Virus record (IMG/VR): IMGVR_UViG_2563366797_000001
Direction: 5' to 3' (one strand)
Source of the DNA: a virus
Taxonomy: Duplodnaviria; Heunggongvirae; Uroviricota; Caudoviricetes
DNA length: 23,088 nt
This document shows, in pieces, positions 3,444 to 20,709 of this stretch. The position numbers and the translations under genes were made by a program. The notes beneath the pieces are model-generated. The model was not told the origin of the DNA. It worked only from the letters and a program-made list of their open reading frames with translations, and ran no database searches. Positions within the stretch are counted from its first letter, which is position 1. Each line of letters opens with the position of its first letter.

Positions 3444-3602
3444 AATGAGCACTTCAGCACAAAACCAATCAATCGAAAATGTATCTAGAGGAAACTGCGG
3501 CAAGAAGACTTCTCGATGTTTGCTATGCACGTAGCGATGCATGGGAAAAAGAGAACGGCGGCACTATTTACGTTCGCTGATAGTTACAGTGTCACTTTTA
3601 AT

Positions 3603-3633
3603 GCTGGTGGAGTGCTCCCACCAGCATTTTTTT
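3603..3633 (+). terminator. Rho-independent terminator
   Basis: GCTGGTGG-AGTGCTC-CCACCAGC followed by ATTTTTTT. Confidence 0.55.
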
Positions 3634-3652
3634 CGTCCAATGAGGAGGGCAT

Positions 3653-4159
3653 TTGAGTATTTTCAATAAACACGCACACCAGGAACGTCCGTACATCGTC
3701 ATAGTAGATATTGATGGGACGATATCAGAGGCAACGGAAGACAGGCTGCATTTACTTCCACCACCTGGCAAAGGTGCATTAACAGAGCACTGGAACGAGT
3801 TTAACCTTGCCTGTGACACTGATGCTCCCATCACTCCAGTTATTGATATGGTGCGCCAGTTGTCCGGCATTTACACCCTCTGGTTTGTAACCGGGCGCTG
3901 TGAGATAGCCAGGGATAAAACACGAGCCTGGTTGCGTAAGCACGTAACAAATGGGGCTGAGCCTTTGCTATCTATGCGTCCTGCCACCGATGACAGAAAT
4001 GACGGTCCAGCAAAGATTGATCTCCTGAAGAAAATTGGTCTAAGTAAAATTGCGTTCGCGCTGGAAGATAAGATTGAAGTGGCGCGTGTTTTCAGGAGTC
4101 ACGGCGTACTTACGTTAATGGTCAGGGAGTATGAAAACGCGCTTCTCCATCAACAATAA
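3653..4159 (+). CDS. HAD-superfamily phosphatase-like protein
   Basis: TTG start with strong GAGGAGGG Shine-Dalgarno. HAD motif I VIVDIDGTI (DxDGT), motif II LWFVTGR, acidic motif FALEDK. Confidence 0.5.
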   Translation: MSIFNKHAHQERPYIVIVDIDGTISEATEDRLHLLPPPGKGALTEHWNEFNLACDTDAPITPVIDMVRQLSGIYTLWFVTGRCEIARDKTRAWLRKHVTNGAEPLLSMRPATDDRNDGPAKIDLLKKIGLSKIAFALEDKIEVARVFRSHGVLTLMVREYENALLHQQ

Positions 4160-4175
4160 TTGCTCTAATAAATCT
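4159..4175 (+). promoter_or_regulatory. C1 operator site with promoter-like TTGATT immediately downstream
   Basis: ATTGCTCTAATAAATCT followed by CTTGATTTTT; the same operator-TTGATTTTT arrangement recurs at 18642. Confidence 0.6.
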
Positions 4176-4257
4176 TGATTTTTAAAACAGAGAAAGTGAA
4201 AATAAAAACATGCCGCAAGGCGCGGCATGTATCCAATCAATCACAGGAGCTGAAAAT

Positions 4258-4344
4258 ATGAACACGGCATTCAAAATCATTATGGCCGCGATCTATTTCT
4301 GGCTGTTCTCTATCACTTTTGGCAGCATTGTCGCGCATGGGTAA
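4258..4344 (+). CDS. Small hydrophobic peptide (28 aa), possible membrane peptide or toxin-like
   Basis: MNTAFKIIMAAIYFWLFSITFGSIVAHG; AGGAG 8 nt upstream; downstream of the 4159 operator and a hairpin (4210-4231). Too short for the ORF track. Confidence 0.3.
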   Translation: MNTAFKIIMAAIYFWLFSITFGSIVAHG

Positions 4345-4423
4345 GGGGAGTATATTAGCCATTTGGAACCCCACGGTCTCTTGCGGGTTTAATTAAGAAC
4401 CCGCAAGAAAAATACGAATTGGG

Positions 4424-7400
4424 CTATATTTTTCCGCCTACGCCTTTAAACTTCTCAATAAACGAGACGATTTTCTGGAAAACTGCCTGTTTTTTCGTTT
4501 TATATTGCGGATTCAACGGACTAAGTTTTGGTAATGTTTCGTTTAATTCTGTGCCATTTTCGGTGGCGTATTCGCGTTTTAAAGACGTGCGAATATAGCG
4601 TTTTGCTGCATCTTCATTGAGATTTTCTTCTTTTATCAATGCTTCTGCTTCACGTTGCTGTTCGCGTTGAGCAAACGTAAAGAATGCCTCAATGATACTG
4701 GCTTTGTCTGGTAAATCATCCAGGTTCGTTTGCTGAATAAAATCGACCACCAGGCCCTCTTTCGCCCGGTTCCCCAGGCTTGAACGAATTAAGCGTTTGA
4801 CCTCTTCGATCATTTCGCCCTTGCCTTTATTTTGTCTATTGTGTTCGAAAATCAGTCCAAGGATATAATCCAGGTTTATTTCCTGAGACTTCAGCAAATC
4901 GACCTCAAAAACTACGTCATCCCAGTCAGTGGTTGATTTCTCTTTTTTCTCAGCTTCTTTCTCACGGCGCTGCCAGTCGCGAATATCGTTATAGGCAGAA
5001 CGATAATCCTGAATCTTGCGATCAGCAGGGAGACGAATTGTTTGCAATTCAGCGAACTTTTCATTATCCACATAATGTTCTGCTTTGAATTTTTCTACCG
5101 CAACAGGATCGCTAAGATCGATTTGTTGCAGGGCTTTTAGCGTGGCAAATTCATCATAGTTTTGCAGGATGTTCTCGGCACGCAGGTATTCGCCAAACAG
5201 TTTAACGAAGTCTTTCTTCTCTTTTTCACTTTCAATACTGGTAGGGTCAGGGAACCGTTGTTCCAGTTCTGAAACTACTGTCATGAAGCCGCGTTTAGCT
5301 TCACCAGTGGCAGCATCAGTAAAGCCTTCCATATACTCTGCATAACTCTTTTCTAAAACCACATTTTTGGTATTTTTGTCACCAAACAGCGTTATGGCAT
5401 CAATGGTTGAGCGTTCCAGATCCCGGAACGTGACAATATTACCGAAGGTTTTAGTCGCGTCATAAATGCGGTTGGTGCGGGAGAATGCCTGCATCAGGCC
5501 GTGAAAACGCAAGTTTTTATCGACGAATAGCGTGTTTAATGTTGGAGCATCGAAGCCGGTTAAAAACATCCCCACGACAATTAGCAGATCGATATCCTGA
5601 TTTTTAACCCGCTGGGCTAAATCACGATAGTAGTTCTGAAAACCGTTACTGTCGGTGCTAAAGTTAGTTTTAAAATGGCTGTTATATTCACGAATTGCAG
5701 CGTCCAGAAACTCTTTAGCACTGCTGTCCATTGCGCTGGTATCAAAAGTTTCATCGGAAATTTCACCAATGGCATTTTGTTCTTCATTGGCGGCAAAGGA
5801 GAAGATTGTCGCAATACGCAGCGGTTTATAGGTAGCCGATTTATTAGCGGCTTCTTCTTGTAACCGTTTAAACGTCGCATAATAGGCTTTCGCGGCATCC
5901 ACGCTGCTCACTGCCAACATAGCATTAAAACCTTTTGAGCCAGGGAAGGTACGGTGGGTTTTCTGGCGGAAATTATTCAGAATATATTGCGTGATTTCCT
6001 GAATACGCATGGGATGAAGAAACGCCTGCTGATTTTCAGCCGCACTCAGTTTTTTCTCGTCAGTTTCTGTCTCTAAAGACTTAAACTGTGGCCGCACATC
6101 GTTGTAGTCCACCTTGAATTTGAGCACTTTTTCGTCACGAATCGCATCGGTAATTACATACGAATGCAATTCACGACCAAATACGCTGGCGGTTGTTTCT
6201 GAGCCTAAGGCGTTTTCCGGGAAAATAGGGGTGCCGGTAAAACCAAACTGATAATAGCGTTTGAATTTCTTCTTCAGGTTTTTCTGCGCTTCTCCAAACT
6301 GGCTGCGGTGGCATTCATCAAATATAAACACCACTTGCTGATTATATACAGGCAGATCGCTTTCTGCTTTCATCAGGTTATTGAGTTTCTGAATAGTAGT
6401 GACGATAATTTTGTTATCGTCCTTATCCAGATTTCGTTTAAGACCTGCGGTATTTTCCGAGCCGTTGACGCTGTCTGGCGAAAAACGCTGATATTCCTTC
6501 ATGGTCTGGTAATCGAGGTCTTTCCTGTCGACCACAAAGAAGACTTTATCAATAAAGTCCAGCTCTGTTGCCAGACGCGCGGCTTTAAAGCTGGTGAGGG
6601 TTTTACCAGAACCGGTAGTGTGCCAGATATACCCACCGCTTTCCGGTTTTGACCAGTTCTTCGCTGTAAAGGAACTCTTAATTTTCCACAGAATGCGCTC
6701 GGTGGCGGCAATCTGGTACGGTCGCATTACCAGTAGTGTCTGACTGCTGTCAAAAACGCTGTAGTTCACCAGAACATTAAGCAGAGTATGTTTCTGGAAA
6801 AAGGTAGCGGTAAAGTCTTTGAGGTCTTTAATCAGTGTATTGTCTGATTTAGCCCAGTTCATGGTGAAGTCAAAACTGTTTTTATCGCGCTTTGTGGTGT
6901 TGGCAAAATAACGGGTATCAGTGCCGTTGGAAATGACGAACAGCTGCAGATACTTAAACAGGGAATTTTCGCTGTTAAAACTCTCTTTACTGTAACGATG
7001 TATCTGGTTGAAAGCCTCACGAATCGCCACCCCGCGTTTTTTTAGTTCGATTTGCACCAGCGGTAAACCATTAACCAGGATCGTGACGTCATAACGGTTA
7101 GCATGAGAACCCGTCTGTTCAAACTGCTGGATAATCTGCACCTTATTGCGCATGAGATTCTTTTTATCTATCAAATAGATGTTCTCAAGACGCTCGTCAT
7201 CAAAAATAAAGTCGCAAATATAGTCGATATGGATTTTACGGGTCTTATCCAGAATGCCATCGCTCGGGTTATCCAGATACTGCTCCGTGAAACGCCGCCA
7301 CTCGCTGTCATTAAACACCACACCATTGAGGTTCTGAAGCTGTTCCCGAACATTGGCTAGCATCGCCGACTGTGATTTTACGGATATAAATTCATAGCCC

Positions 7401-7540
7401 TGATTCCGCAGGTCCTGAATCAGTTCACGTTCCAGGTCCGATTCGCTCTGGTAGCTGTCGCCTGTTTGCTCAGCTTTGATGTACTTATCAAGGACGATAA
7501 AGTTATTGGATTCAGCAATGGTGTGTGTTTGATGAGTCAT
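4424..7540 (-). CDS. hsdR: Type I restriction enzyme R subunit (HsdR)
   Basis: 1038 aa; Walker [18 protein letters not shown]-box-like [11 protein letters not shown], helicase motifs; last gene of the M-S-R operon. Confidence 0.95.
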
Positions 7541-7661
7541 AGCGCATCCTTTGTGCCGTCTGGCAAGGGCCGGAAGGGAGTTAAGGGCGACTTCCGGCGT
7601 GTAGAAAATAGTCTATATACTGACCGGATGTTAAGGTGGTCCGGTCTGTAAAAATGCTCAA

Positions 7662-8288
7662 TTAATTACTGGCTGTTTCAGGTTTTGGGAAACTGAACAG
7701 TAAATCACGATAGTACTCGTATTGTTTCTGGCGCAACTCGATTTCACGCGGGAGACCTTCGGTGATGGAGTTGGTCAGTGTGTCGAATTTGTCCAGAATT
7801 CGCACGATTTCAGACTGGATGGCAAGGGATTTTTCCGGATTATCCGGGCAGGGGATTGGGATTTTTTTTTGAGAATAATTACTAATCCATTGGCGTTTAT
7901 GGTCTCCCTCTGCGAATTCACTTGGTAATGTATTGAGCCAATAGTAAACATATTTCAGTAAGGTTTTATTATCATCACATGATGTAACCATTTTCATGGC
8001 CGATGATTTTGCCTTAAAGTCAAAATCCACCCATTTATTAGCGGTGGTGAAATCATCAAAAATTATTACAGGTGCCTTTGATGCCTGATAAATACCATGA
8101 GTCTCATTTGTGTATCCAAGAATAAATGTTTTTCCGGCAGTAAGAACCGGTATGGTATATGTGTCGTGATAATCTTTTGCTTTTACCAAATACTTTGTTG
8201 GCTGTTCATATTTGGTTATTTCCCCCAATGGCAACCACTCAACTTCAACCCCATCCAGCAATTTTTCCAGATAACTCATCTCGCTCAT
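7662..8288 (-). CDS. hsdS: Type I specificity subunit (HsdS), short single-TRD form
   Basis: 208 aa; start overlaps the hsdM stop by 4 nt (coupling); position between hsdM and hsdR; length is consistent with one target-recognition domain plus a conserved region. Confidence 0.8.
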
Positions 8289-9847
8289 TTCTGCACCTCG
8301 CAGCCTTCAATTTCAGCCACAATCGCATCAATATCTTTGCGCAACTGGTCGATTTTGCTGACCGTGGTTTTCAGCTCAGCATTCAGCTCACCGATATCGA
8401 TAATTTCGCGAGTATCTTTCGCTTCAACATAACTGCTCACCGACAGGTTATAGTCATTCGCGACAACAGTCTCAAACGCAACAGATTTCGCCAGATGGGC
8501 AACATCTTCCTTGCCGGCAAATACCTGCATAATCTGTTCGATATGGGCATCGGTCAGGATATTGTTGTTAGTCTCTTTTTTGAACAATTCGCTGGCATCA
8601 ATAAACTGAACTTTGGTATCCGTTTTATGTTTAGACAGCACCAGAATATTGACGGCAATGGTGGTGCCAAAGAACAGGTTCGGTGCCAGTGAAATCACGG
8701 TTTCGACATAGTTATTGTCGACCAGATATTGACGGATTTTCTGCTCTGCGCCGCCACGGTAAAAAATACCCGGGAAGCAGACAATCGCAGCACGACCTTT
8801 GGCCGAAAGATAGTTCAGCGCATGTAGTACAAACGCAAAGTCAGCTTTGGATTTGGGGGCCAGGACGCCAGCCGGGGCAAAACGTTCATCGTTAATCAGC
8901 GTCGGGTCATCGCTGCCAATCCATTTCACCGAATACGGCGGGTTAGAAACGATGGCATCAAACGGTTTTTCATCTCTGAAGTGTGGCTCAGTCAGTGTAT
9001 TACCCAGCTTGATATCAAACTTGTCGTAGTTGATGTTGTGCAAAAACATGTTCATACGTGCCAGGTTATAGGTTGTATGGTTGATTTCCTGACCAAAAAA
9101 GCCTTCTTCGATGATATGGTTATCAAACTGCTTTTTAGCCTGCAACAACAGTGAGCCGGAACCCGCTGCCGGGTCGTAGATTTTGTTAACGTTGGTCTGC
9201 CCGTGCATAGCCAGTTGTGCAATCAGCTTGGAGACGTGCTGCGGTGTAAAGAACTCACCGCCTGACTTACCGGCATTTGCCGCATAGTTAGAAATCAGGA
9301 ACTCATAGGCATCACCGAACAGGTCAATCTGATGTTCGTTGAAGTCACCAAGTTTTAACCCTTCAACCCCTTTCAGAACCGCAGCCAGGCGGGCATTTTT
9401 ATCTTTAACGGTGTTACCCAGGCGGTTACTGGTGGTATCGAAATCAGCAAACAAACCTTTGATGTCTGCTTCTGAAGGGTAGCCGTAAGCAGAACTTTCG
9501 ATAGCAACGAAGATGCTGTTTAAATCTGCGTTCAGTCTGTCATTGGTATTTGCTTTCGCAGCTACGTTGCAGAAAAGCTGACTTGGGTAGATGAAGTAGC
9601 CTTTGGTTTTGATGGCATCGTCTTTAATGTCATCAGTAATTACGCTGTCATCCAGTTTCGCATAACAGATGCTGTCATCACCGGCTTCAATATAGCTGGA
9701 AAAATTTTCGCTGATAAAACGGTAGAAAAGCGCGCCCAGAACGTATTGCTTAAAATCCCATCCATCGACCGAACCTCTGACATCGTTAGCAATTTGCCAG
9801 ATTTGACGATGAAGCTCTGCACGTTGTTGAATACTTGTCATTTTCAT
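8285..9847 (-). CDS. hsdM: Type I N6-adenine DNA methyltransferase (HsdM)
   Basis: 520 aa; NPPY motif ([11 protein letters not shown]), AdoMet-binding region ([10 protein letters not shown]), typical HsdM N-terminus. Confidence 0.95.
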
Positions 9848-9986
9848 CCACTTATTTCAGGCTTATGTAATTGGCGGTGATTCTACAGCAACTTGGATGC
9901 TTTAGCAGTTCGGACATTAGGCTACGAATGACCTGCCTAGAGGTTTGTTAAGCCGCAAAGTGCTGGTGCTTTATGTCTGTGAAGTT

Positions 9987-10017
9987 TATAATTGTGTACA
10001 CATAACGAGTACACGAG
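9987..10017 (+). promoter_or_regulatory. phd-doc promoter/operator region
   Basis: TATAAT at 9987-9992 followed by perfect palindrome TGTGTACACA (9993-10002) and GAGTACACGAG directly upstream of the phd ATG. Confidence 0.55.
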
Positions 10018-10023
10018 GTATTT

Positions 10024-10245
10024 ATGCAATCCATTAACTTCCGTACCGCGCGGGGCAACCTTTCTGAAGTGCTCAACAATGTTGAGGCCGGGGAAGAGGT
10101 TGAAATCACCCGCAGAGGCCGTGAGCCAGCAGTAATTGTCAGCAAGGCTACTTTTGAAGCCTACAAAAAAGCGGCGCTGGATGCTGAATTTGCATCCCTG
10201 TTTGACACCCTGGACTCCACCAACAAGGAACTGGTTAACCGATAA
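10024..10245 (+). CDS. phd: Phd antitoxin
   Basis: 73 aa, [39 protein letters not shown]..., matches recalled P1 Phd; stop overlaps the doc start. Confidence 0.95.
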
Positions 10246-10625
10246 TGAGGCATATATCACCGGAAGAACTTATTGCGCTTCATGATGCGAATATAAACCG
10301 CTACGGCGGCCTGCCGGGAATGTCTGATCCGGGTAGGGCAGAGGCCATTATCGGGAGAGTTCAGGCCAGAGTTGCCTACGAAGAGATCACCGACCTTTTC
10401 GAAGTCTCCGCCACCTACCTGGTGGCTACGGCGAGAGGGCATATATTCAATGATGCCAATAAGCGTACCGCGCTAAACAGTGCGCTGCTATTTCTACGCC
10501 GTAACGGGGTGCAGGTATTTGATTCACCTGAACTGGCAGACCTTACTGTAGGCGCTGCGACTGGCGAGATATCTGTATCTTCTGTCGCCGACACGTTACG
10601 TAGATTGTATGGTTCTGCGGAGTAG
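10245..10625 (+). CDS. doc: Doc toxin (Fic-fold kinase)
   Basis: 126 aa, [17 protein letters not shown]...[23 protein letters not shown], matches recalled P1 Doc. Confidence 0.95.
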
Positions 10626-10629
10626 ATTA

Positions 10630-10809
10630 ATGGCACGTAAATACAACAAATTGTCCCGTGAAGCGTTAAAGATGCTTCTTGATGGCGTGAGTCGCCGCGA
10701 GGTAAAGCAATACCTGGCTGGTAAGCAAATTGGTGCCAGGACCGCTATTGCTGTGTTATGCCGTCAGGAAATGGTTGTGCTTAAACAGAGAATGCCGGGC
10801 AGCATATAA
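10630..10809 (+). CDS. Small post-doc protein (PdcA-position), hypothetical
   Basis: ATG 5 nt after the doc stop with GGAG upstream; 59 aa MARKYNKLSREALKMLLDGVSRREVKQYLAG. Confidence 0.4.
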   Translation: MARKYNKLSREALKMLLDGVSRREVKQYLAGKQIGARTAIAVLCRQEMVVLKQRMPGSI

Positions 10810-10836
10810 AGCCCAATCAGTGATTAAAGGTGTGAT

Positions 10837-11880
10837 GTGAAAGCCGTAATTACTCCCTTTGTACAGAAAGAACTTGGCCTCGCCACGTTCAAAGTGGATC
10901 AGGAGGTCAGAAAGCTGGTGGAGGCTGGCCGTAAATTTATTATGGAGCCGGTGCCGCGTGAGTTAATCGAGCACATGGACGACGGCCTCGTTGCTTCCGA
11001 GCAAACTATAGCAACAAATGAGGCGTTGCAGCCGTTTTTTAACAGCGATGAACTGTTTCGCCGTATTGGTGGAATTGACGCGCTGGTGGCGTGGTTGCGC
11101 AGGAAAGAGGGGCAATGCCAGGCCGCAGATCGTAGCTGGTGTGACAACCATATTGTCCACGCTGAACGAGACAATAGCGCGGTGTTGTTGTGCTGGCATC
11201 ACGATAACCATTACCGGATGCGTGGTTTTAATGAGCTGAAAGAAACGCTGCACAATAATCGCGTTAACTGGATACTGGATGTCGCCCGTCAGGAAATGGG
11301 CCTTTCAGATAGCCATGATTTAAGTATTCAGGAGCTGTGCTGGTGGGCTTTCATGCGTAACATGATGCACCTGATGCCGGAAGAAGTCTGCCGCATATCA
11401 ATAAATAAGATGAAGGCTGCTCCGCAGGATAGCGGACCTCTGAAAGAGGCGGATATTCGCCCGTATGACGATCGCGCTACAGCATATGTTCAGATGATGG
11501 AAGAACGCGCCGCGCCGATGCGTGCAAAAGTATGCCCTGTGGATGTTGACTCCGACCCAGGTATGGCGCATTTCAAAATACCAAAACTTCAATCGCTAAA
11601 ATTGCCCGAGTACATGGACTTTGTGGCTTCCCGTCCATGCTGTGGCTGTGGAGCTGCGGGAGCTGGCGCTCACATTACGCCTTATATCGTTCGTCATAGT
11701 CGATTATGCGCGCATGACATTTACGCAATTCCTCTGTGCCAGTCATGCCAGCGTGATATTGAGCGTGACCGCGATAATTGGGAGAAGACGCACGGTAGGC
11801 TGGCGATGCATCAACGATTGTTCTTTGATTACGCGCTTGGAGTCGGCGCTATCACAAGTTACTCGTCGAGCGTTAGATAA
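10837..11880 (+). CDS. Hypothetical Cys-rich protein (PdcB-position)
   Basis: 347 aa, GTG start with AAGGTG upstream; C-terminal cysteine cluster (CCGCGAAG...CAHD...CQSCQRD) suggests metal binding. Family not recognised. Confidence 0.5.
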
Positions 11881-11881
11881 A

Positions 11882-11898
11882 ATTGCTCTAATGTATTG
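11882..11898 (+). promoter_or_regulatory. C1 operator site upstream of the lpa-position gene
   Basis: ATTGCTCTAATGTATTG, directly after the stop of the preceding gene. Confidence 0.6.
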
Positions 11899-11968
11899 CT
11901 ATTTCTTTAATCGATGGTATTATATTCCACGTTGATTAGTTGACATGGGCTAATCAGTAGGTGACAGG

Positions 11969-12283
11969 ATGTTACTTAACTGGCAGGGACGCCACTTCAT
12001 GGAAATAAATCACTCACGAATAACATCGTACGAGATTGCGAATTACATGATCCGCACTAAATCTCTTCTATCAGCGAAAGAACTCGCAGCAATTCTTGAA
12101 AAGGAATACCCGCATCTGGATGTCGATAAGCGCGATGTTTATCTGCGCTTAAAAGCTATCGCTGTGTCTAAGTATTCGTCTGTTTTGATTGATGACAGTA
12201 CGAACGAAAGCGTGAAAATAACTGGTCAGTGCTGGAAGCAGCTGAATTCATCGAGGCGCATGGCGGGAAAGTGCCGCCCCTGA
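11969..12283 (+). CDS. Possible late-promoter-activator (Lpa-position) protein
   Basis: 104-aa ORF downstream of a C1 operator; assignment by position only. Confidence 0.3.
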
Positions 12284-12600
12284 TGCTGGAGCAAATCAAA
12301 GCCGATCTGCGTGCTCCTAAGACCAATACCGATGATGAGGAAAGGCAAACAGCCGTCGGTGGCCCTTCTCTTGAAGATCTGGACAAAGTTGCGCGAGAAC
12401 GGGCCGCCAACCGCCGCGCCGATGCCGCATTGTGGATTGAGCAGCGTAGGGAAGAAATCGCCGATATCGTTGATACAGGCGGTTATGGAGATGTTGATAC
12501 TGAAGGTGTATCAAACGACCCATGGCTGGAACAAGACCTGGACGAAGACGAGGAGGAAGACGAAGAAGTTACCCGCAAGCTATACGGGGATGATGATTAA
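12229..12600 (+). CDS. pacA: PacA-like terminase small-subunit C-terminal remnant
   Basis: 123 aa from GTG, acidic C-terminus ([11 protein letters not shown]); stop overlaps the pacB ATG (TAATG). Frame closed upstream at 12193. Far shorter than the recalled ~45-kDa P1 PacA. Confidence 0.4.
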
Positions 12601-12989
12601 TGGCCAGAAGTTGCGTAACGGATCCACGTTGGCGCGAGCTGGTGGCGCTATATCGTTATGACTGGATTGCGGCCGCTGATGTTTTGTTCGGCAAAACACC
12701 TACCTGGCAGCAGGATCTGATTATTGAGTCTGTGCAGGAACAGGGTAGCAAGACATCTGTTTCGTCTGGTCACGGTACCGGGAAATCAGACATGACTTCT
12801 ATCATGATCATGTTGTTCATAATCATGTATCCCGGTGCCCGCGCCATTATCGTTGCGAACAAAATTCAGCAGGTAATGACCGGTATATTCAAGTACATCA
12901 AGATAAACTGGGCTACTGCCACCAGCCGTTTTCCATGGCTTGCTGATTATTTTGTTCTGACAGAAACCGCTTTCTATGAGGTTACTGGT
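12600..12989 (+). pseudogene. pacB: pacB (terminase large subunit), N-terminal part, interrupted by IS2
   Basis: Walker [10 protein letters not shown]; reading frame runs into the IS2 end at 12990 and resumes in frame at 14326. Confidence 0.8.
12985..12989. repeat. IS2 target-site duplication, left copy (CTGGT)
   Basis: CTGGT immediately outside the IS2 terminus; identical copy at 14321-14325. Confidence 0.85.
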
Positions 12990-13000
12990 TGGATTTGCCC

Positions 13001-13906
13001 CTATATTTCCAGACACCTGTTATCACTTAACCCATTACTGGCTTGCTGCCGTAGATATTCCCGTGGCGAGCGATAACCCAGTGCACTATGCGGATGCCAT
13101 TCGTTATAATGCTCGAACGCCTCTGCAAGGTTCTTTGCTGCCGTTAACCCGTCTGGTTTGGGCATGACACTGATGTAGTCACGCTTTATCGTTTTCACGA
13201 AGCTCTCTGCTATGCCGTTACTCTCCGGACTCCGCACCGCCGTGCTCTTCGGTTCAAGCCCCAACATCCGGGCAAACTGCCGTGTTTCATTAGCCCGGTA
13301 GCATGAACCATTATCCGTCAGCCACTCTACTGGAGACGCCGGAAGCTCGTTGCCGAAGCGGCGTTCCACCGCTCCCAGCATGACGTCCTGTACTGTTTCA
13401 CTGTTGAAGCCGCCCGTAGTGACCGCCCAGTGCAGTGCCTCACGGTCACAGCAGTCCAGCGCGAACGTGACTCGCAGTTTTTCTCCGTTATCACAGCGGA
13501 ACTCGAACCCGTCAGAGCACCATCGCTGATTACTTTCTTTCACAGCCACTCTGCCTGTATGTGCCCGTTTCGATGGCGGTACAGCAGGTTTTCGCTCAAG
13601 CAACAGCGCATTCTGGCGCATGATCCGGTAAACACGTTTGGCATTGATCGCAGGCATACCATCAAGTTCTGCCTGTCTGCGAAGCAGCGCCCATACCCGA
13701 CGATAACCATACGTGGGCAGCTCTCCGATAACATGGTGTATACGGAGAAGCACATCCGTATCATCAGTGTGACGACTGCGGCGGCCATCCATCCAGTCAT
13801 CGGTTCGTCTGAGAATGACGTGCAACTGCGCACGCGACACCCGGAGACAACGGCTGACTAAGCTTACTCCCCATCCCCGGGCAATAAGGGCGCGTGCGCT
13901 ATCCAC
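13001..13906 (-). CDS. insD: IS2 transposase OrfB (InsD)
   Basis: 301 aa, DDE integrase-type sequence (...WCSDGFEF...LTDNGSCY...). Confidence 0.9.
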
Positions 13907-14229
13907 TTTTTTGCCCGTCCATATTCAACGGCTTCTTTGAGGAGTTCATTTTCCATCGTTTTCTTGCCGAGCAGGCGCTGGAGTTCTTTAATCTGCTTCA
14001 TGGCGGCAGCAAGTTCAGAGGCAGGAACAACCTGTTCTCCGGCGGCGACAGCAGTAAGACTTCCTTCCTGGTATTGCTTACGCCAGAGAAATAACTGGCT
14101 GGCTGCTACACCATGTTGCCGGGCAACGAGGGAGACCGTCATCCCCGGTTCAAAACTCTGCTGAACAATTGCGATCTTTTCCTGTGTGGTACGCCGTCTG
14201 CGTTTCTCCGGTCCTAAGACATCAATCAT
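13864..14229 (-). CDS. insC: IS2 OrfA (InsC)
   Basis: [41 protein letters not shown]...; helix-turn-helix N-terminus; start taken at MIDVL (121 aa). Confidence 0.9.
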
Positions 14230-14320
14230 CTGCTCTCCAATGACTAGTCTAAAAACTAGTATTAAGACTATCACTTAAATAAGTGATACTGGTTGTCTGG
14301 AGATTCAGGGGGCCAGTCTA

Positions 14321-14325
14321 CTGGT
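14321..14325. repeat. IS2 target-site duplication, right copy (CTGGT)
   Basis: Identical to 12985-12989. Confidence 0.85.
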
Positions 14326-15420
14326 AAAGGTGTATGGACTGTAGTACCGAAGGGCTTTCGTCTGGGAAGTGAAGAAGTTCTCGCCGGTGAACACGCAGAT
14401 CATCTTCTGTATATTATCGATGAAGCCTCCGGTGTCAGTGATAGAGCTTTCGGTATCATCACCGGTGCTCTTACCGGACAGGATAACCGCATCTTATTAC
14501 TGTCACAGCCTACACGCCCAAGCGGCTATTTCTACGATACTCACCATAAACTGGCCAAGCGTCCTGGTAACCCAGATGGCGTTTATACGGCGATCACGCT
14601 TAACAGTGAGGAATCACCGCTGGTAACGTCAGAATTTATCAAAATGAAGCTGGCGGAGTACGGCGGGCGTGATAACCCTATGTACATGATTAAGGTACGC
14701 GGCCTATTCCCTAAATTACAGGACGGCTTCCTTCTTGGACGTGATGAGGTTGAACGTGCGACGCGGCGGAAAGTCAAGATTGCCAAAGGATGGGGCTGGC
14801 TTGCATGTGTGGACGTTGCTGGTGGTACAGGACGGGATAAGTCCTTTATCAATATCATGATGGTGTCCGGCCAGCGAAATAAACGCCGTGTAATCAACTA
14901 TCGAATGCTGGAATACACAGACGTTACAGAAACGCAGCTTGCCGCCAAAATTTTCGCAGAATGTAATCCTGAGCGATTCCCCAATATCACCATAGCGATA
15001 GACGGCGATGGCCTGGGTAAAGCAACGGCGGATCTGATGTACGAGTATTATGGTATTACCGTACAGCGTATACGCTGGGGTAAAAAGATGCATAGCCGTG
15101 AAGATAAGAGCCTGTACTTTGATAAACGTGCTTATGCCAACGTTCAAGCCGCAGAGGCCGTAAAATCTGGTCGTATGAGACTGGATAAGGGTAATGAAAC
15201 TATTGAGGAAGCGTCGAAAATCCCTGTAGGGATTAACTCCGCAGGTCAATGGAAGGTGATGAGTAAGGAGGATATGAAGAAAAAACTCAACCTGCACTCA
15301 CCAGACCATTGGGATACATATTGTTTCGCTATGCTGGCGGATTATGTTCCCCAGGACGAAGTGCTTAGCGTCGAAGACGAAGCGCAGGTTGATGAAGCTC
15401 TGGCATGGCTTAATGAATAA
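14326..15420 (+). pseudogene. pacB: pacB (terminase large subunit), C-terminal part
   Basis: 365 codons in frame with the N-terminal fragment once IS2 and one duplication copy are removed; reconstructed length about 495 aa. Confidence 0.8.
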
Positions 15421-15423
15421 ACA

Positions 15424-15440
15424 CTTGCTCTAATAAATTG
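15424..15440 (+). promoter_or_regulatory. C1 operator-like site heading the antirepressor module
   Basis: CTTGCTCTAATAAATTG, followed by TTGACT and a possible -10. Confidence 0.55.
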
Positions 15441-15572
15441 TGTTTTTTGACTGCCGATGTTACATTGAACCTGACCTCTTGCGCCTTGAGGCATTTTCGG
15501 TTTATGCTTATCAGGCACCTCATTAAAACGGGTGCCGGGATTGAGACCCCGGATAATGTCAAAGGCGACACA

Positions 15573-15594
15573 GACGCCGAAAGCGTCTTTTTTT
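15573..15594 (+). terminator. Intrinsic terminator-like hairpin inside the antirepressor leader
   Basis: GACGC-CGAAA-GCGTC followed by T7; flanked by complementary GACACA/TGTGTC. Confidence 0.5.
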
Positions 15595-15779
15595 GTGTCA
15601 TGCCATCGCACAGCCATACGTAGCGTTTAGCTCCGAAATCAATGGTAGTGCTGGCTGGGCTGCCGAAAGGCAGGCCGGTTCCCTTTGACGCCGGTAGTCT
15701 CAACCCAGTCAGTGCTACCGCCATTGAGATTGAGACCTCACGCGGTAGCTCCTTAACTTAGTCAAAGGAGGCTGCCATT

Positions 15780-16001
15780 ATGGCTACTGTCCCTACCCCA
15801 ATTCATCCTGAATTTATCTGGCGCTTTTACTCCTGCCAAAAACGTCACTATCACTTCGTTATTGCACCGACAGAAGATGAGGCCCATTCTCAGCTTCCTG
15901 ACGCCCCATGTATTTTCTCTGCCCGTTTTTCCACTGATTCACGCAATTCTCTCAGTTACTGGTGCCTCCCTGTTAACGCTTCTGCTCAGGAGGGACTATG
16001 A
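15780..16001 (+). CDS. Small protein translationally coupled to the antirepressor gene (Icd-like position)
   Basis: 73 aa; strong AAGGAGG Shine-Dalgarno; stop overlaps the downstream ATG (ATGA). Confidence 0.4.
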   Translation: MATVPTPIHPEFIWRFYSCQKRHYHFVIAPTEDEAHSQLPDAPCIFSARFSTDSRNSLSYWCLPVNASAQEGL

Positions 16002-17116
16002 GAACGTCATTAGTTACCCGTGAAGAGATGATCGAGGCAATTGAACAGCACACTGCCTGTATCAGTACTAGGGATATACCGGGCGTTATTGCCAACTACT
16101 TCATGATCACCAAACAACTTTACCGGAGAAAGGACAAGAACGCAGTTCACCGCATCCTGCTGTCTGATATCCGCGAATACCTGCTCGAACAGGGGCATCT
16201 GAATTACGCAACCGCCGCAGCCGAATCACGCAAGGAGGCACACAGAATGAAAGCAACTAACGTTAAATCAGAAAAAATTCATGCACCTTCAGTTCAGGAA
16301 TCGGAGCTGGTGGTTGTTCAGAATCAGTCTGATGAAATTCCCGTTCTGGAATGGCAGGGAGTGCGTGTAGTGACAACCGAGACTCTTGCTAGAGGGTATG
16401 GGACAGAAACAATCCGTATTCGCCAAAATCATCATGAGAACAAAGTACGCTTTGTTGAAGGGAAGCACTTTTTCAAAGTTGAAGGAGAATCATTGCGCGA
16501 GTTGAAGCACAGAGTAGCTTTAAACTACTCTGTAAAAATTGCTCGCAATGTTCGCTCACTCACCCTCTGGACAGAACGCGGCGCAGCCCGCCACGCTAAA
16601 ATGCTCGAAACCGATCAGGCATGGGCATTCTTTGAAAAACTGGAAGACAGCTACTTCCGACAAAAAGAACAGCAACCGATCGCAATCCCCCAGACGCTTC
16701 CTGAAGCCCTACGCCTGGCTGCCGAACTGGCTGAACAAAAGCAACTTCTGGAACAGAAAGCCCACCAGCTAAATCAGCAGCTGGTGGCCGCCGCTCCTAA
16801 AGTCGATTTTGCCGACCGGGTATCAGTAGCTAAAGGGATCCTGATTGGGAATTTTGCAAAGGTTGTTGGACTTAAGCAAAACGCGCTGTTTGTCTGGTTA
16901 CGGGAGAACGGCATCCTGATAGCGTCCGGTGGACGTAAAAATGTGCCGTTCCAGCAGTACATCAACGCGGGGTATTTCACGGTGAAAGAAGTGGTGCTGG
17001 ATGATGAAGATGGCTACCAGATACGGTTGACGCCTCAATTAACGGGTAAAGGCCAGCAGTGGTTGACGCGTAAACTGCTCGATGCTGGCTTGTTAAAACC
17101 GGTGGCGGCTGAATAA
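15998..17116 (+). CDS. Antirepressor-like protein (N-terminal ORF6N domain, C-terminal KilAC/Ant domain)
   Basis: 372 aa; N-terminal ...WQGVRVVTTETLARGYGTETIRIRQNHHENKVRFVEGKHFF... (ORF6N pattern), C-terminal ...FVWLRENGILI...YINAGYF... (Ant C-terminal pattern); convergent with c1. Confidence 0.7.
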   Translation: MRTSLVTREEMIEAIEQHTACISTRDIPGVIANYFMITKQLYRRKDKNAVHRILLSDIREYLLEQGHLNYATAAAESRKEAHRMKATNVKSEKIHAPSVQESELVVVQNQSDEIPVLEWQGVRVVTTETLARGYGTETIRIRQNHHENKVRFVEGKHFFKVEGESLRELKHRVALNYSVKIARNVRSLTLWTERGAARHAKMLETDQAWAFFEKLEDSYFRQKEQQPIAIPQTLPEALRLAAELAEQKQLLEQKAHQLNQQLVAAAPKVDFADRVSVAKGILIGNFAKVVGLKQNALFVWLRENGILIASGGRKNVPFQQYINAGYFTVKEVVLDDEDGYQIRLTPQLTGKGQQWLTRKLLDAGLLKPVAAE

Positions 17117-17123
17117 TGGAAGA

Positions 17124-17145
17124 ATGCCCGGTTGATGCCGGGCAT
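17124..17145. terminator. Hairpin between the convergent antirepressor and c1 genes
   Basis: ATGCCCGG-TTGATG-CCGGGCAT; no strong T-tract on either side. Confidence 0.35.
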
Positions 17146-17148
17146 AAT

Positions 17149-18000
17149 TTATTGCGCGCTTTCGGGGTTGTCGTTTACTGGCTGCCCCTTCTTGGTTTTA
17201 CGGCTGCGCGTAACTGATGCGGCTGACTTAACCTTTTTCTCTTCGCGAGTGATGGCAATTTGTTTTTTTACATTTTCAATATCTGCCAGGCGATATATTT
17301 TTGCTTGCGGCCAGCGGTCGCAGATGATCGGTTCTATGGAGTCATAAAGGCTAAATTTTGCTTTTTCGAATTCACCGTTGATGATAATTCCATCACGGAG
17401 AGTTTCATCGCAGATAAACACGCCACACAGTGGCACATGGTAACTAACTGATTTACCATCATTGTAGTTAGGGCTACTGGAAATGTAGTGGACGCGCAGC
17501 ATTGTTTCGCTAAAGCCGTGTACGCGCATACGGAATTTTTCATCCTCCGGGTACTGCTTCATTAGCTCTTTTGTTGCTTCCAGGTTCTCTATGTATTTCG
17601 CACTGTGCTCATTGATCCCCGCGCTTTTTTGGATGCGAATGTCCTTATCAATCAGATGAATAATGCGGCCAGCGGTCATGTTGACGCTGTTCACAGCTTC
17701 TGTCTGATAAGTTGTAACCTTACGCACACCGCGAAGGATGTTAGGCACTGGATATAAAATAGTCTTTGGGATATTGAGGTCTGGGTACTGTTCCAGTTCC
17801 CGCGCCATTAAAGTCCATTTATCAATTTCAGCCTGAATGCTGTCAGTTTCTTTGAACGGTAGAACGACAACCGGGCGTACAGGACGACCGTCGCTGGCTG
17901 TATCAACGTGTTGGGCGCGTGCAACAGCTTTTTTTAGAAAGAGATCCCTGAAGCTGACGAACTCCTGGTACAGTTGTTCGCCGTAGACATAATTTATCAT
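17149..18000 (-). CDS. c1: C1 repressor of lysis (primary immunity repressor)
   Basis: 283 aa, MINYVYGEQLYQEFVSFRDLFLKKAVARAQHV..., matches recalled P1 C1; GGAGGAGG Shine-Dalgarno. Confidence 0.95.
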   Translation of the reverse strand: MINYVYGEQLYQEFVSFRDLFLKKAVARAQHVDTASDGRPVRPVVVLPFKETDSIQAEIDKWTLMARELEQYPDLNIPKTILYPVPNILRGVRKVTTYQTEAVNSVNMTAGRIIHLIDKDIRIQKSAGINEHSAKYIENLEATKELMKQYPEDEKFRMRVHGFSETMLRVHYISSSPNYNDGKSVSYHVPLCGVFICDETLRDGIIINGEFEKAKFSLYDSIEPIICDRWPQAKIYRLADIENVKKQIAITREEKKVKSAASVTRSRKTKKGQPVNDNPESAQ

Positions 18001-18094
18001 TGATCCTCCTCCAGAATTGACATGGTCAATAACGCCCGGCTGAGAAAACCGGTCATTACTGACCTATATTATAGAGGGATCAAACAAAAATAAT

Positions 18095-18111
18095 AGATTT
18101 ATTAGTGCATT
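18095..18111 (-). promoter_or_regulatory. C1 autoregulatory operator (Op99a-type)
   Basis: Minus-strand AATGCACTAATAAATCT between coi and c1. Confidence 0.6.
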
Positions 18112-18320
18112 TATTGTGAGTCTAACTGGTTAGTTGCCATGAGATATTCGATTGTGTCAGTGAGGTCATCCAGGTCGTCTTGGGTGATGCGGTACTCCTG
18201 ATTGGATATCTTTGAGTAGTGTTCAGCAATGGCGCGGGCAGCGTCGGTTTCGGCAGGGTCTACAGATAAAGCGTTAGAGCAATGTCTAACGTCGTCGATG
18301 GTTGGTTGAATGAAAGCCAT
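18111..18320 (-). CDS. coi: Coi, C1 inactivator
   Basis: 69-aa acidic protein immediately upstream of c1 on the same strand, as in P1 immC. Confidence 0.85.
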   Translation of the reverse strand: MAFIQPTIDDVRHCSNALSVDPAETDAARAIAEHYSKISNQEYRITQDDLDDLTDTIEYLMATNQLDSQ

Positions 18321-18558
18321 AATTATGTCTCACTGTATTGACAACACAGAGCCTGAAGCTCTGACCTACTGTTTCACCCATGATCCATGCTGGGGTAATC
18401 TAACAACATTGCGCTGTGTGTAAGATGAGCAATGCATAGCTGTAATGCCGTTGTATAAGGTTTCCCTGTTTGCTCATTTCCTTCTGAGCCGCTCTACAAC
18501 GCTGAAGACACATTAAATAGTGAATCCAAAGTCGTATTACGAAACGGCGGCAAAACTA

Positions 18559-18575
18559 TAATTTATTAGAGCAAT
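18559..18575 (-). promoter_or_regulatory. C1 operator site (immC upstream region)
   Basis: Minus-strand ATTGCTCTAATAAATTA. Confidence 0.6.
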
Positions 18576-18641
18576 TGTCAAACAACTATGAAAAACAATC
18601 CAGTTTTTAGCTGGTGGAGTGGGATTTTTCTCTCAAAATTT

Positions 18642-18658
18642 ATTGCTCTAATAATTCT
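18642..18658 (+). promoter_or_regulatory. C1 operator site with adjacent TTGATT promoter element
   Basis: ATTGCTCTAATAATTCT followed by TGATTTTTGTG. Confidence 0.6.
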
Positions 18659-18701
18659 TGATTTTTGTGCGCAGCTGGACGTAAACTCCTCTTCTGACCT
18701 G

Positions 18702-18735
18702 ATAACTTCGTATAGCATACATTATACGAAGTTAT
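18702..18735. other. loxP: loxP site-specific recombination site
   Basis: Exact ATAACTTCGTATA-GCATACAT-TATACGAAGTTAT (13-bp inverted repeats around an 8-bp spacer). Confidence 0.98.
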
Positions 18736-18754
18736 CTTAAGGGTTATTGAACAT

Positions 18755-18827
18755 GATCAATTCACCTGTAAATCCATACAGTTCAATACCTTATCAGGTC
18801 AAATAGTGATCACTTGATCATTTGATC
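18755..18827. promoter_or_regulatory. Cluster of four GATC (Dam) sites upstream of cre
   Basis: GATC at 18755, 18808, 18816 and 18824, three of them as TGATCA-type repeats within 20 bp. Confidence 0.55.
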
Positions 18828-19153
18828 AAGGTTGCGCTACGTAAAATCTGCGAAATGTTGGCAGTGTTAGTACTCCAGATTTCGCGTAGCGCACTTAGCA
18901 CCACCAATCAATCAGAGGTGAAAAATGGGATATTCAGCTGCTAAAGTGTCCACTCATCTTGAGCTTGAGAAAAACCGTGGTTACTGGCGGGCAAAAGGGT
19001 TTGATCGTGATAGTTGCCAACTGTCATTATCGCGCGGTGAAGAGAAAATAGAACGCACGCGCGGTCGCTGGCGTTTCTATGACGAGAACCATAAACAGGT
19101 AAAGGCAGAGCCGATCCTGTACACTTTACTTAAAACCATTATCTGAGTGTTAA

Positions 19154-20185
19154 ATGTCCAATTTACTGACCGTACACCAAAATTTGCCTGCATTACCGGT
19201 CGATGCAACGAGTGATGAGGTTCGCAAGAACCTGATGGACATGTTCAGGGATCGCCAGGCGTTTTCTGAGCATACCTGGAAAATGCTTCTGTCCGTTTGC
19301 CGGTCGTGGGCGGCATGGTGCAAGTTGAATAACCGGAAATGGTTTCCCGCAGAACCTGAAGATGTTCGCGATTATCTTCTATATCTTCAGGCGCGCGGTC
19401 TGGCAGTAAAAACTATCCAGCAACATTTGGGCCAGCTAAACATGCTTCATCGTCGGTCCGGGCTGCCGCGACCAAGTGATAGCAATGCTGTTTCACTGGT
19501 TATGCGGCGGATCCGAAAAGAAAACGTTGATGCCGGTGAACGTGCAAAACAGGCACTAGCGTTCGAACGCACTGATTTCGACCAGGTTCGTTCACTCATG
19601 GAAAATAGCGATCGCTGCCAGGATATACGTAATCTGGCATTTCTGGGGATTGCTTATAACACCCTGTTACGTATAGCCGAAATTGCCAGGATCAGGGTTA
19701 AAGATATCTCACGTACTGACGGTGGGAGAATGTTAATCCATATTGGCAGAACGAAAACGCTGGTTAGCACCGCAGGTGTAGAGAAGGCACTTAGCCTGGG
19801 GGTAACTAAACTGGTCGAGCGATGGATTTCTGTCTCTGGTGTGGCTGATGATCCGAATAACTACCTGTTTTGCCGGGTCAGAAAAAATGGTGTTGCCTCG
19901 CCATCACCCACCAGCCAGCTATCAACTCGCGCCCTAGAAGGGATTTTTGAAGCAACTCACCGATTGATTTACGGGGCTAAGGATGACTCTGGACAGAGGT
20001 ACCTGGCCTGGTCTGGACACAGTGCCCGTGTCGGAGCCGCGCGAGATATGGCCCGTGCCGGAGTTTCAATACCGGAGATCATGCAAGCTGGTGGCTGGAC
20101 CAACGTAAATATTGTCATGAACTATATCCGTAACCTGGATAGTGAAACAGGGGCAATGGTGCGCCTGCTGGAAGATGGCAATTAG
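19154..20185 (+). CDS. cre: Cre tyrosine recombinase
   Basis: 343 aa, MSNLLTVHQNLPALPVDATSDEVRKNLMDMFRDRQAFSEHTWKMLLSVCRSW..., matches recalled P1 Cre; sits about 420 bp from loxP. Confidence 0.97.
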   Translation: MSNLLTVHQNLPALPVDATSDEVRKNLMDMFRDRQAFSEHTWKMLLSVCRSWAAWCKLNNRKWFPAEPEDVRDYLLYLQARGLAVKTIQQHLGQLNMLHRRSGLPRPSDSNAVSLVMRRIRKENVDAGERAKQALAFERTDFDQVRSLMENSDRCQDIRNLAFLGIAYNTLLRIAEIARIRVKDISRTDGGRMLIHIGRTKTLVSTAGVEKALSLGVTKLVERWISVSGVADDPNNYLFCRVRKNGVASPSPTSQLSTRALEGIFEATHRLIYGAKDDSGQRYLAWSGHSARVGAARDMARAGVSIPEIMQAGGWTNVNIVMNYIRNLDSETGAMVRLLEDGN

Positions 20186-20202
20186 CCATTAACGCGTAAA
20201 TG

Positions 20203-20219
20203 ATTGCTCTAATTCTTTG
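20203..20219 (+). promoter_or_regulatory. C1 operator-like site downstream of cre
   Basis: ATTGCTCTAATTCTTTG. Confidence 0.5.
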
Positions 20220-20235
20220 ATATTTATGGTGGCAT

Positions 20236-20547
20236 ATGAGAAAGGATTTCAACATCGACGGAAAATATGTAGTGCTGTCTGTAAGCACTAATATTCTGTC
20301 GCCATCTGTCATTGTCACCGTAAAGTTGAGCGATAGGATGCCTGATATCGACTCGATATCTGTTGCGTTCCCCGTTAAAAGCATGCGGAGTGCTGAACAT
20401 TTTGTGATGAATGCAACGGAGGAGGAAGCGCGGCGCGGGCTTACTAGAGTGATGGGGGAATTTGGCGAACTCCTGGGTAAGGTAAACAATGCCCTTTCAA
20501 TCAGTTCAGCAAGGTCCAAAGCGTTAACAGCTTCCATGATGAAATAA
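20236..20547 (+). CDS. Hypothetical protein (103 aa) downstream of an operator
   Basis: ATG with GGTGG upstream; stop immediately precedes an A-tract and hairpin. Confidence 0.4.
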   Translation: MRKDFNIDGKYVVLSVSTNILSPSVIVTVKLSDRMPDIDSISVAFPVKSMRSAEHFVMNATEEEARRGLTRVMGEFGELLGKVNNALSISSARSKALTASMMK

Positions 20548-20572
20548 AAAAAAGCCTGGCAAGGAGCCAGGC
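20546..20572 (-). terminator. Rho-independent terminator oriented for minus-strand transcripts
   Basis: On the minus strand GCCTGGC-TCCTT-GCCAGGC followed by T8; plus-strand side lacks a T-tract. Confidence 0.5.
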
Positions 20573-20679
20573 TGCACAAAAGAGCGGGTTTGTATTCCGC
20601 ATCCAATCAATCAAGAAGGAGTATAGCACACAGGTACTGAAGTGAAAAAATGTGATTCGCGAGAAACAAAATATCTACC

Positions 20680-20709
20680 ATTGCTCTAATTGATTGCTAT
20701 AATTTAGCC
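20680..20709 (+). promoter_or_regulatory. Tandem overlapping C1 operators (Op2-type) with embedded TATAAT; ref promoter
   Basis: ATTGCTCTAATTGATTG overlapping ATTGCTATAATTTAGCC; perfect TATAAT at 20698-20703. Confidence 0.65.

Follow-up and report, generated by a model that had tools for sequence, protein, structure and literature searches.

A repeated word in a P1-like phage-plasmid

The DNA analysed is IMG/VR virus record IMGVR_UViG_2563366797_000001, a stretch of 23,088 nucleotides (nt) that we refer to, at its full length, as the window. It is a P1-like phage-plasmid and, in megablast searches, matches P1, SJ46, and RCS47 piecewise with 95-98% identity. P1 is among the best-studied temperate phages and is the source of Cre/lox. 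Our subject is a ten-base word, CCAATCAATC, that recurs in this DNA and that, in one of its copies, probably marks the start of a small RNA (sRNA) gene. An exact-match count gave four copies in the window, all on the plus strand, and none on the minus strand. This agrees with an earlier examination, hereafter the sequence-only reading, which had also counted four. That reading located the first copy exactly and misplaced the others by 3, 2, and 9 nt. The copies, and the genes beside them, are as follows (ORF, open reading frame; aa, amino acids).

3465-3474, plus strand: copy of CCAATCAATC in pmgS, codons 7-10 (+21 to +30; frame starts at 3445, no Shine-Dalgarno sequence); predicted target site
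4233-4242, plus strand: copy at -25 to -16 from the ATG at 4258; part of a predicted target site (4228-4242) in the leader of a 28-aa ORF
4258-4344, plus strand (P1 84393-84479): small ORF, MNTAFKIIMAAIYFWLFSITFGSIVAHG, 28 aa, predicted single-helix membrane peptide, not annotated in NC_005856
18904-18913, plus strand: copy in the 5' leader of cra, at -21 to -12 relative to the start codon (ATG, 18925), 1 nt before a GAGG Shine-Dalgarno sequence and 11 nt from the ATG; predicted target site
18925-19146, plus strand: cra, 73 aa, directly downstream of the 18904 site; precedes cre; PHROG 804
20603-20612, plus strand: copy between c8 and ref, just past the c8 terminator

The sequence contexts of the 4233, 18904, and 20603 copies are CCAATCAATCacAGGAGctgaaaatATG, CCAATCAATCaGAGGTGaaaaATG, and CCAATCAATCaagAAGGAGtatagc respectively. 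According to the P1 annotation, the first three copies are all in transcripts from C1-operator-controlled promoters. The 4233 copy is 74 nt downstream of C1 operator Op88, and also past the PpmgT promoters. The 18904 copy is downstream of loxP and promoters P3cre and P4cre. The small ORF, which precedes pmgT in P1, is presumed to be the gene regulated via the 4233 site; its peptide has no match in Pfam or PHROG. In pmgS, the word is retained in a 29-codon deletion remnant (ORF 3445-3534). Compared to P1, 1,125 base pairs (bp) are missing from the interior of the gene (P1 82495-83619).

The expected number of copies in the window is 0.16, and none of 100 dinucleotide shuffles contained four or more. 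Permitting one mismatch revealed no additional sites in the window, against 2.24 expected. Note that CCAATCAATC was picked post hoc as the word of interest. In Markov simulations of 23-kb sequences, some 10-mer had at least four non-overlapping copies in 18.5% (order 1) to 46.5% (order 3) of cases. Hence, the count of CCAATCAATC alone is a weak, not a decisive, argument. Apart from CCAATCAATC, the 10-mers that reach four copies in the window itself are all cores of the C1 operator or of Chi, both of which are functional sites. The C1-operator core ATTGCTCTAA occurs nine times, across both strands, and Chi words, containing GCTGGTGG, have four copies each.

Reference P1 (NC_005856) contains five copies in 94.8 kb, against about 0.2 expected from genome size and word length. 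Four of these are shared with the window. The fifth (P1 73519-73528, minus strand) is antisense inside dbn, beyond the gene 5 terminator. It is missing from the two more divergent relatives described below and is probably not functional.

These numbers bear on whether the word, which is (CAAT)2 flanked by C, is of low complexity and recurs without function. The simulations favour such a view, since 18-46% of them produce a 10-mer with four copies. So does the repetitive nature of the word: at the small-ORF site, 3 of 77 IMG/VR relatives have lost one CAAT unit and read CCAATC only. Conversely, all copies in the window are on the sense strand, at gene starts, and P1 far exceeds expectation. The comparative data below contradict chance outright, and we regard it as barely credible. 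Hence, the claim that the word is non-random holds.

The sequence-only reading also proposed a shared translation-initiation or regulator-binding module, with three copies directly upstream of a Shine-Dalgarno sequence. The latter is literally true of the 4233, 18904, and 20603 copies. However, a translation-initiation module is not present at every copy. The 3465 copy is within the pmgS coding sequence, the 20603 copy has AAGGAG with no start codon at a usable distance, and one copy in Cronobacter phage JK004 abuts an ATG without any Shine-Dalgarno sequence.

A predicted sRNA gene at the fourth copy

The locus that includes the 20603 copy is downstream of both c8 (by 58 nt) and cre (by about 420 nt). 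This copy had been described as decayed. This does not agree with its conservation. In 53 distinct sequences, from 78 close relatives, both the word and the adjacent GGAGTATAGCACA are invariant, while the 5-6 nt between them, and the DNA upstream, vary. Read on the opposite strand, the fourth copy is the perfect complement of the other three, and it begins the following set of predicted elements.

20620-20648, minus strand: predicted sRNA promoter; -35-like TTTTCA (20648-20643), 17-nt spacer, extended -10 element TGTGCTATACT (20630-20620), 7-nt spacer to the predicted start at ~20612
20546-20612, minus strand (P1 1828-1894): predicted ~67-nt sRNA, GAUUGAUUGGAUGCGGAAUACAAACCCGCUCUUUUGUGCAGCCUGGCUCCUUGCCAGGCUUUUUUUU, with both ends predicted
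20603-20612, minus strand: predicted sRNA 5' seed, GAUUGAUUGG, the fourth copy read on the opposite strand
20581-20604, minus strand: hairpin 1 of the predicted sRNA, from folding
20545-20573, minus strand: predicted Rho-independent terminator; stem-loop 20573-20553, then 7-8 T; shared with c8 in the other orientation

Both ends of this unit were flagged by a scan tool. It identified a minus-strand promoter-like site ending at 20620 (TTTTCA, 17 nt, TATACT, with TG before the -10 element) and a minus-strand terminator-like site at 20573-20553 followed by a T run. Together, these frame a 67-nt unit that starts at the 10-mer. Along the minus strand, the order is TGTGCTATACT, the 7-nt spacer, GATTGATTGG, the hairpin, and the terminator. 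The AAGGAG previously taken for a Shine-Dalgarno sequence therefore sits in the promoter-to-start spacer of a minus-strand gene. When folded (z = -3.4), the unit leaves its 5' end free; hairpin 1 and a U-rich linker follow, then the terminator. Seed nucleotides 1-7/8 are unpaired in all folds. Across 12 distinct sRNA variants, the ten seed bases are identical in 11, and the first nine in all 12. Among IMG/VR relatives, two sRNA variants have T rather than G at seed base 10.

We propose that the repeated 10-mer represents the 5' seed of a phage-encoded, trans-acting sRNA and its three mRNA pairing sites. Judged from the sequence, the probability that this RNA and these sites are real is about 0.75. 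Most likely, the regulator is the RNA encoded by the fourth copy itself, rather than a protein or the ribosome. The earlier suggestion of regulator-binding sites near ribosome-binding sites is thus probably correct for three copies, but not as a description of four equivalent translation-initiation modules.

A real minus-strand promoter at 20620-20648 might also serve a purely local purpose. Its transcript could control read-through of c8 or cre, or the downstream gene in relatives, with the other copies being coincidences or relics of duplication. In Salmonella plasmid NZ_CP146848.1 and in JK004, the RNA does overlap the 5' leader of the adjacent gene and would be a cis-antisense RNA there. 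There are also hints of old duplications. The flanks of copies 1 and 3 share GCACTT..AGCAC, and those of copies 2 and 4 share GCAT..CCAATCAATCA. Set against this, the three other copies are exact where their flanks are near random, including at synonymous positions of pmgS, and both relatives have extra copies at other gene starts. Furthermore, the terminator, 40 nt downstream, limits the transcript to ~67 nt and ends it before c8. An exclusively local role is thus very unlikely.

Conservation of the word and of the predicted sRNA gene

We compared the P1 lineage with two divergent lineages, those of Salmonella plasmid NZ_CP146848.1 and Cronobacter phage JK004, in which PmgS is ~69% identical to that of P1. 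Both have the word at all four homologous places. The exception to perfect identity is the small-ORF copy of the Salmonella plasmid, which reads TCAATCAATC, a change compatible with G-U pairing. Exact copies number five in the Salmonella plasmid and six in JK004, all on the sense strand. As target sites, we count three in P1 (the dbn copy being the exception), four exact plus one G-U-compatible in the Salmonella plasmid, and five in JK004. Every one of these is a sense-strand site at a gene start or close to it. The copies that P1 does not have are 0-17 nt upstream of other start codons; one abuts the ref ATG in JK004.

At homologous sites, the word is kept in 10 of 10 positions, whereas only 5-25 of 30 are identical in the ungapped 30-nt flanks. 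For the cra leader, the flanks match at just 5-9 of 30 positions in the two relatives. The pmgS site is particularly informative with respect to coding constraint. Its ten bases (..C CAA TCA ATC) do not differ between the three lineages, although the codons around them do, synonymous positions included. Since the word occurs at the same places within diverged flanks, and is kept at synonymous positions of pmgS, chance is ruled out and constraint must operate at the nucleotide level. In three IMG/VR relatives, pmgS has GCAATCAATC. The small ORF is likewise kept, encoding 28 aa in P1, 46 aa in the Salmonella plasmid, and 53 aa in JK004, with a conserved hydrophobic N-terminal helix.

The architecture around the fourth copy is also maintained. 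The Salmonella plasmid, JK004, and variants L177 and L181 have TGTGATATACT, a spacer of exactly 7 nt, GATTGATTGG, and a two-hairpin fold (z -3.0 to -3.6). TGTG(C/A)TATACT, and its 7-nt distance to the seed, are kept in all three lineages. In total, the predicted sRNA architecture is repeated in five other variants from three lineages. Hairpin 1 differs in sequence between them: it is GCGG/CCGC in P1, UGCA..GGA/UCC..UGCA in the Salmonella-plasmid type, and GUAG/CUAC in JK004. Within the P1 group, hairpin 1 variants alter the loop or yield G-U pairs. In the terminator stem, there is one compensatory pair (U-A to C-G, in four sequences) as well as G-U-compatible changes. In 7 of 10 variants, G-U pairs make folding of the RNA strand 1.8-6.5 kcal/mol more favourable than that of its complement.

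Beyond the ten bases, position 11 of the predicted sRNA varies together with the base preceding the word at its targets (position -1). JK004 has C at nt 11, opposite G at all five targets, and the Salmonella plasmid has U, opposite A at all five. In P1, nt 11 is A and pairs only at the small-ORF site (one of three). This pattern is supportive of pairing, not decisive, because an 11-bp protein site would produce it too. We weighed whether a phage-encoded protein, either a DNA-binding regulator or an RNA-binding translational repressor, recognises the word as a site of 10-11 bp (or nt), with the 20603 copy being one more site, for instance to regulate the neighbouring promoter. The consistent orientation of all copies at gene starts would suit such a protein, as would the same -1 base in every copy of a lineage. 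The C1 repressor of P1, as annotated, also uses asymmetric sites. However, a protein site fails to account for the conserved extended -10 element, exactly 7 nt from the fourth copy on the opposite strand, or for the lineage-specific hairpin sequences and terminator that follow it. No candidate protein is known, and an invariant 10-mer without degenerate variants is unusual for protein sites. Hence, this alternative is unlikely.

The locus is present in 615 of 5,426 complete E. coli genomes in RefSeq. It is nearly always on P1-like phage-plasmids, often with resistance genes, and is never annotated as an RNA. Outside the lineages above, the Citrobacter plasmid CP047774.1, a more distant P1-like plasmid (PmgS ~21% identical), has no exact copy of the word. 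Hence, the system appears to be restricted to two groups, P1/P7 and Salmonella-plasmid/JK004. Scans for further lineages returned none. Among genome contigs, there were two Escherichia matches and two chance matches; among metagenomes, there were 13 variants, all of P1 or JK004 type except for one unrelated sequence. A further sequence, NZ_LT883139.1, is identical to the window only around cre and is not collinear elsewhere.

In the Salmonella-plasmid and JK004 lineages, a 6-8-bp inverted repeat flanks the -10 element of the predicted sRNA promoter. It shows compensatory changes: GCGAATGA/TCATTCGC, CGGATG/CATCCG, and GCGAAC/GTTCGC. It is located at about 60518-60545 in NZ_CP146848.1 and at about 44864-44890 in JK004, and is also found in L177 and L181. 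This may be a 5'-leader hairpin of the opposite-strand gene, overlapped in cis by the sRNA.

Predicted regulation and relation to known RNAs

The proposed mechanism is as follows. Transcription of the minus strand would start at ~20612, driven by the extended -10 promoter at 20630-20620. The product would be an RNA of ~67 nt. It would begin with GAUUGAUUGG, continue through a short hairpin and a U-rich linker, and end in the terminator shared with c8. Its single-stranded 5' seed could then pair with CCAAUCAAUC in phage mRNAs, namely in the cra leader, the 28-aa ORF leader, and pmgS. In relatives, the seed also matches the leaders of more genes, ref included. Most likely, pairing on or beside the ribosome-binding site would lower translation, or mRNA stability, of early genes controlled by C1 operators. 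The closest C1 operator to the sRNA promoter is Oref, ~70 nt upstream. Since the targets are under C1-controlled promoters, and no C1 operator overlaps the sRNA promoter, the sRNA would be made in the lysogen. It could there damp leaky expression of its targets, through blocked initiation or decay, adding a second tier of control, based on RNA, to that of the C1 repressor. Note that we infer production of the RNA, the positions of its ends, repression rather than activation, the timing of expression, and any Hfq dependence; the observations behind them are sequence features, conservation, and complementarity.

The predicted pairing is most extensive at the small-ORF site. There, in the window, it reaches 5 nt further upstream than the 10-mer, giving 15 bp that include two G-U pairs. 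In a duplex scan, 4228-4242 is the best trans site (-22.4 kcal/mol).

Several points weigh against this interpretation. The sRNA and its promoter are predictions from sequence, and the -35 element (TTTTCA) is weak. The terminator is required by c8 in any case, and both strands fold equally well in the P1 lineage. Folding predicts that the last 2-3 bases of the seed are paired, as part of the base of hairpin 1. With regard to targets, two of the three in the P1 lineage pair over 10 bp only, and the pmgS site (+21 to +30) is beyond the region in which pairing usually blocks initiation. The co-variation at nt 11, as noted above, is equally expected of an 11-bp lineage-specific protein site, since the fourth copy is itself one of the sites. 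Finally, in a duplex scan of the whole window with an 18-nt part of the RNA, the cra site comes only twelfth. This 18-nt energy scan is non-discriminating, being dominated by GC-rich false positives.

The pairing model does lend itself to experiment. The seed is 10 nt long, the targets are identical and number three to five, and relatives provide natural variants of both, all of which is material for testing. One example of an altered seed would be GAUACAUUGG in place of GAUUGAUUGG.

The sequence holds the features of a trans-acting, base-pairing sRNA: a predicted promoter, a predicted terminator closing an RNA of 50-300 nt, a conserved seed within a variable remainder, and sites in several unlinked mRNAs. 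The closest parallels are RybB and OmrA/OmrB, enterobacterial sRNAs with the seed at the 5' end. Like the predicted RNA, these are transcribed from their own promoter, and their seed runs from the first transcribed base. A short hairpin and a U-rich linker come next, and a Rho-independent terminator, with its long U tail, closes the molecule. They also act on several mRNAs, each with a complement of the seed at its ribosome-binding site or close to it. The difference is that the predicted sRNA belongs to a phage-plasmid, and the genes it is predicted to target are those of the phage itself.

For OmrA, the resemblance extends to sequence. The 9 nt AUUGAUUGG of E. coli MG1655 omrA (L169 503-590) are the same as those in the predicted phage seed; OmrB differs at one base. 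Beyond this 9-mer, there is no homology between OmrA/B and the predicted sRNA, and the match could reflect cross-talk or coincidence. We weighed whether the host RNA is the regulator that the phage sites address, since nt 10-18 of its 5' region are complementary to CCAAUCAAU. This would plug phage early genes into the EnvZ/OmpR envelope response. The match is in the single-stranded 5' part of OmrA, and OmrA pairs better than OmrB at every site tested. However, OmrA pairs with only nine of the ten invariant bases, leaving the last C unexplained, whereas the phage RNA matches all ten. The promoter and terminator around the fourth copy are also unexplained, and the duplex energies are unremarkable. 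We think it highly improbable that OmrA is the sole regulator; it may be an additional player beside the phage sRNA rather than an alternative to it.

If the phage sRNA and its sites are real, OmrA could also act on these phage sites, or, conversely, the phage RNA on host targets of OmrA. The sRNA may also underlie c8, a poorly defined locus for 'establishment of lysogeny'; the ORF to which that name is now given is directly adjacent, and its assignment is only putative. In its fullest form, the proposal is of an undescribed trans-acting sRNA beside cre/lox that holds down C1-controlled early genes (the cra-cre leader, the membrane peptide, pmgS, and ref in relatives), may share sites with OmrA through its OmrA-like seed, and may be the real c8 determinant. 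As a whole, this is speculative and we consider it unlikely.

Comparison with other RNAs places the predicted sRNA in context. The C4 antisense RNA of P1 (immI, RF01695) is also a P1-encoded small RNA and, as we propose for the predicted one, blocks translation by pairing near a ribosome-binding site and adds a layer of immunity to C1. Unlike the predicted sRNA, C4 is processed from the transcript of its own target and uses two loop sequences (targets TTGACAG and GTTAGTGA). For the predicted sRNA, we propose a promoter of its own and a linear 5' seed; its predicted targets are 1.7-17 kb distant in the window. DicF (Qin) and IsrK (Gifsy-1) are, similarly, short terminator-ended RNAs of temperate phages that engage several mRNAs by limited pairing. 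They differ in acting largely on host mRNAs, or on one phage operon, whereas here at least 3-5 phage mRNAs share an identical 10-nt site. The tisB/istR-1 and ralR/ralA pairs involve a short hydrophobic peptide gene with a leader that pairs with an RNA, as does the small ORF (up to 15 bp in the window), an arrangement reminiscent of an antitoxin RNA that silences a membrane toxin. In our case, the RNA gene is distant from the peptide gene (16 kb in the window and ~12 kb in P1) and there are other targets too.

Searches for a known family produced no assignment. At gathering level, Rfam has no family for the predicted sRNA. In a relaxed search, the best match was SorX, which spans the predicted unit (minus strand, 20547-20621) with 22.6 bits against a gathering threshold of 46.6. 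Eight of the 11 weak matches were to sRNA families on the minus strand, which points to generic sRNA architecture. OmrA-B (RF00079) gave no match even at E = 10. Likewise, C4 (RF01695) gave none at 20480-20700 even at E = 10, its only match in the window being at 15638-15725.

Other candidates were tried and rejected. Pairing with ribosomal RNA, as in a translational enhancer, is not indicated; E. coli 16S, 23S, and 5S RNAs have no notable complementarity to the word (best 9/10, longest run of 6, at 16S 1015-1024). The a2 and b2 target sites of C4, TTGACAG and GTTAGTGA, are unrelated to it. A type I toxin-antitoxin system is suggested by the hydrophobic 28-aa ORF, but the RNA gene is 16 kb away (20612 versus 4258) and has other targets. 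Compared by eye only, the sites of IHF, DnaA, LexA, C1, ParB, and RepA do not fit the word. In G-U-tolerant scans of P1 and the Salmonella plasmid, GRUUGRUUGG was conserved only on the reverse strands of the sites; the extra occurrence in P1, at 73519 in dbn, is not conserved.

The predicted sRNA is absent from the 535-feature P1 reference annotation and from Rfam 15. Literature on P1 sRNAs and transcriptomes yielded nothing relevant, and the word, searched on both strands, matched unrelated primers only, although a prior description in a subscription journal is possible. The evidence suggests that this is, quite probably, a new phage-encoded base-pairing sRNA with a small regulon. A conserved sRNA of this type would be a new regulator in the lysis-lysogeny circuitry of P1, targeting the leader of the cra-cre operon. 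The analysis also points to a gene for a small membrane peptide that is conserved but not listed in the P1 annotation.

Some features of the window, outside the predicted regulon, are worth recording. Between cre and c8, at 20203-20219, there is a consensus C1-operator core, ATTGCTCTAATTCTTTG; P1 has ATTGCTATAATTATTTG there, with no operator annotated. Large ORFs (1038, 208, and 520 aa) occupy the minus strand from 4424 to 9847; they are preceded by the small ORF and followed by ORFs at 10024-10625 that we take to be phd/doc. P1 has pmgT through humD in this position. According to its annotation, the flanks match DNA adjacent to the hsd (type I restriction-modification) loci of EcoDXXI and R124. 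At gathering level, Rfam identifies an isrK-like RNA (60 bits; 15515-15593, plus strand) and a C4 antisense RNA (75 bits; 15638-15725, plus strand). The C4 copy is followed by an icd-like ORF (15780-16001) and a 372-aa ORF (15998-17116, plus strand). The latter is probably ant, which is named in the RCS47 match. This immI-type module is directly beside c1 (17149-18000, minus strand) in the window, while in P1 immI is ~45 kb from c1.

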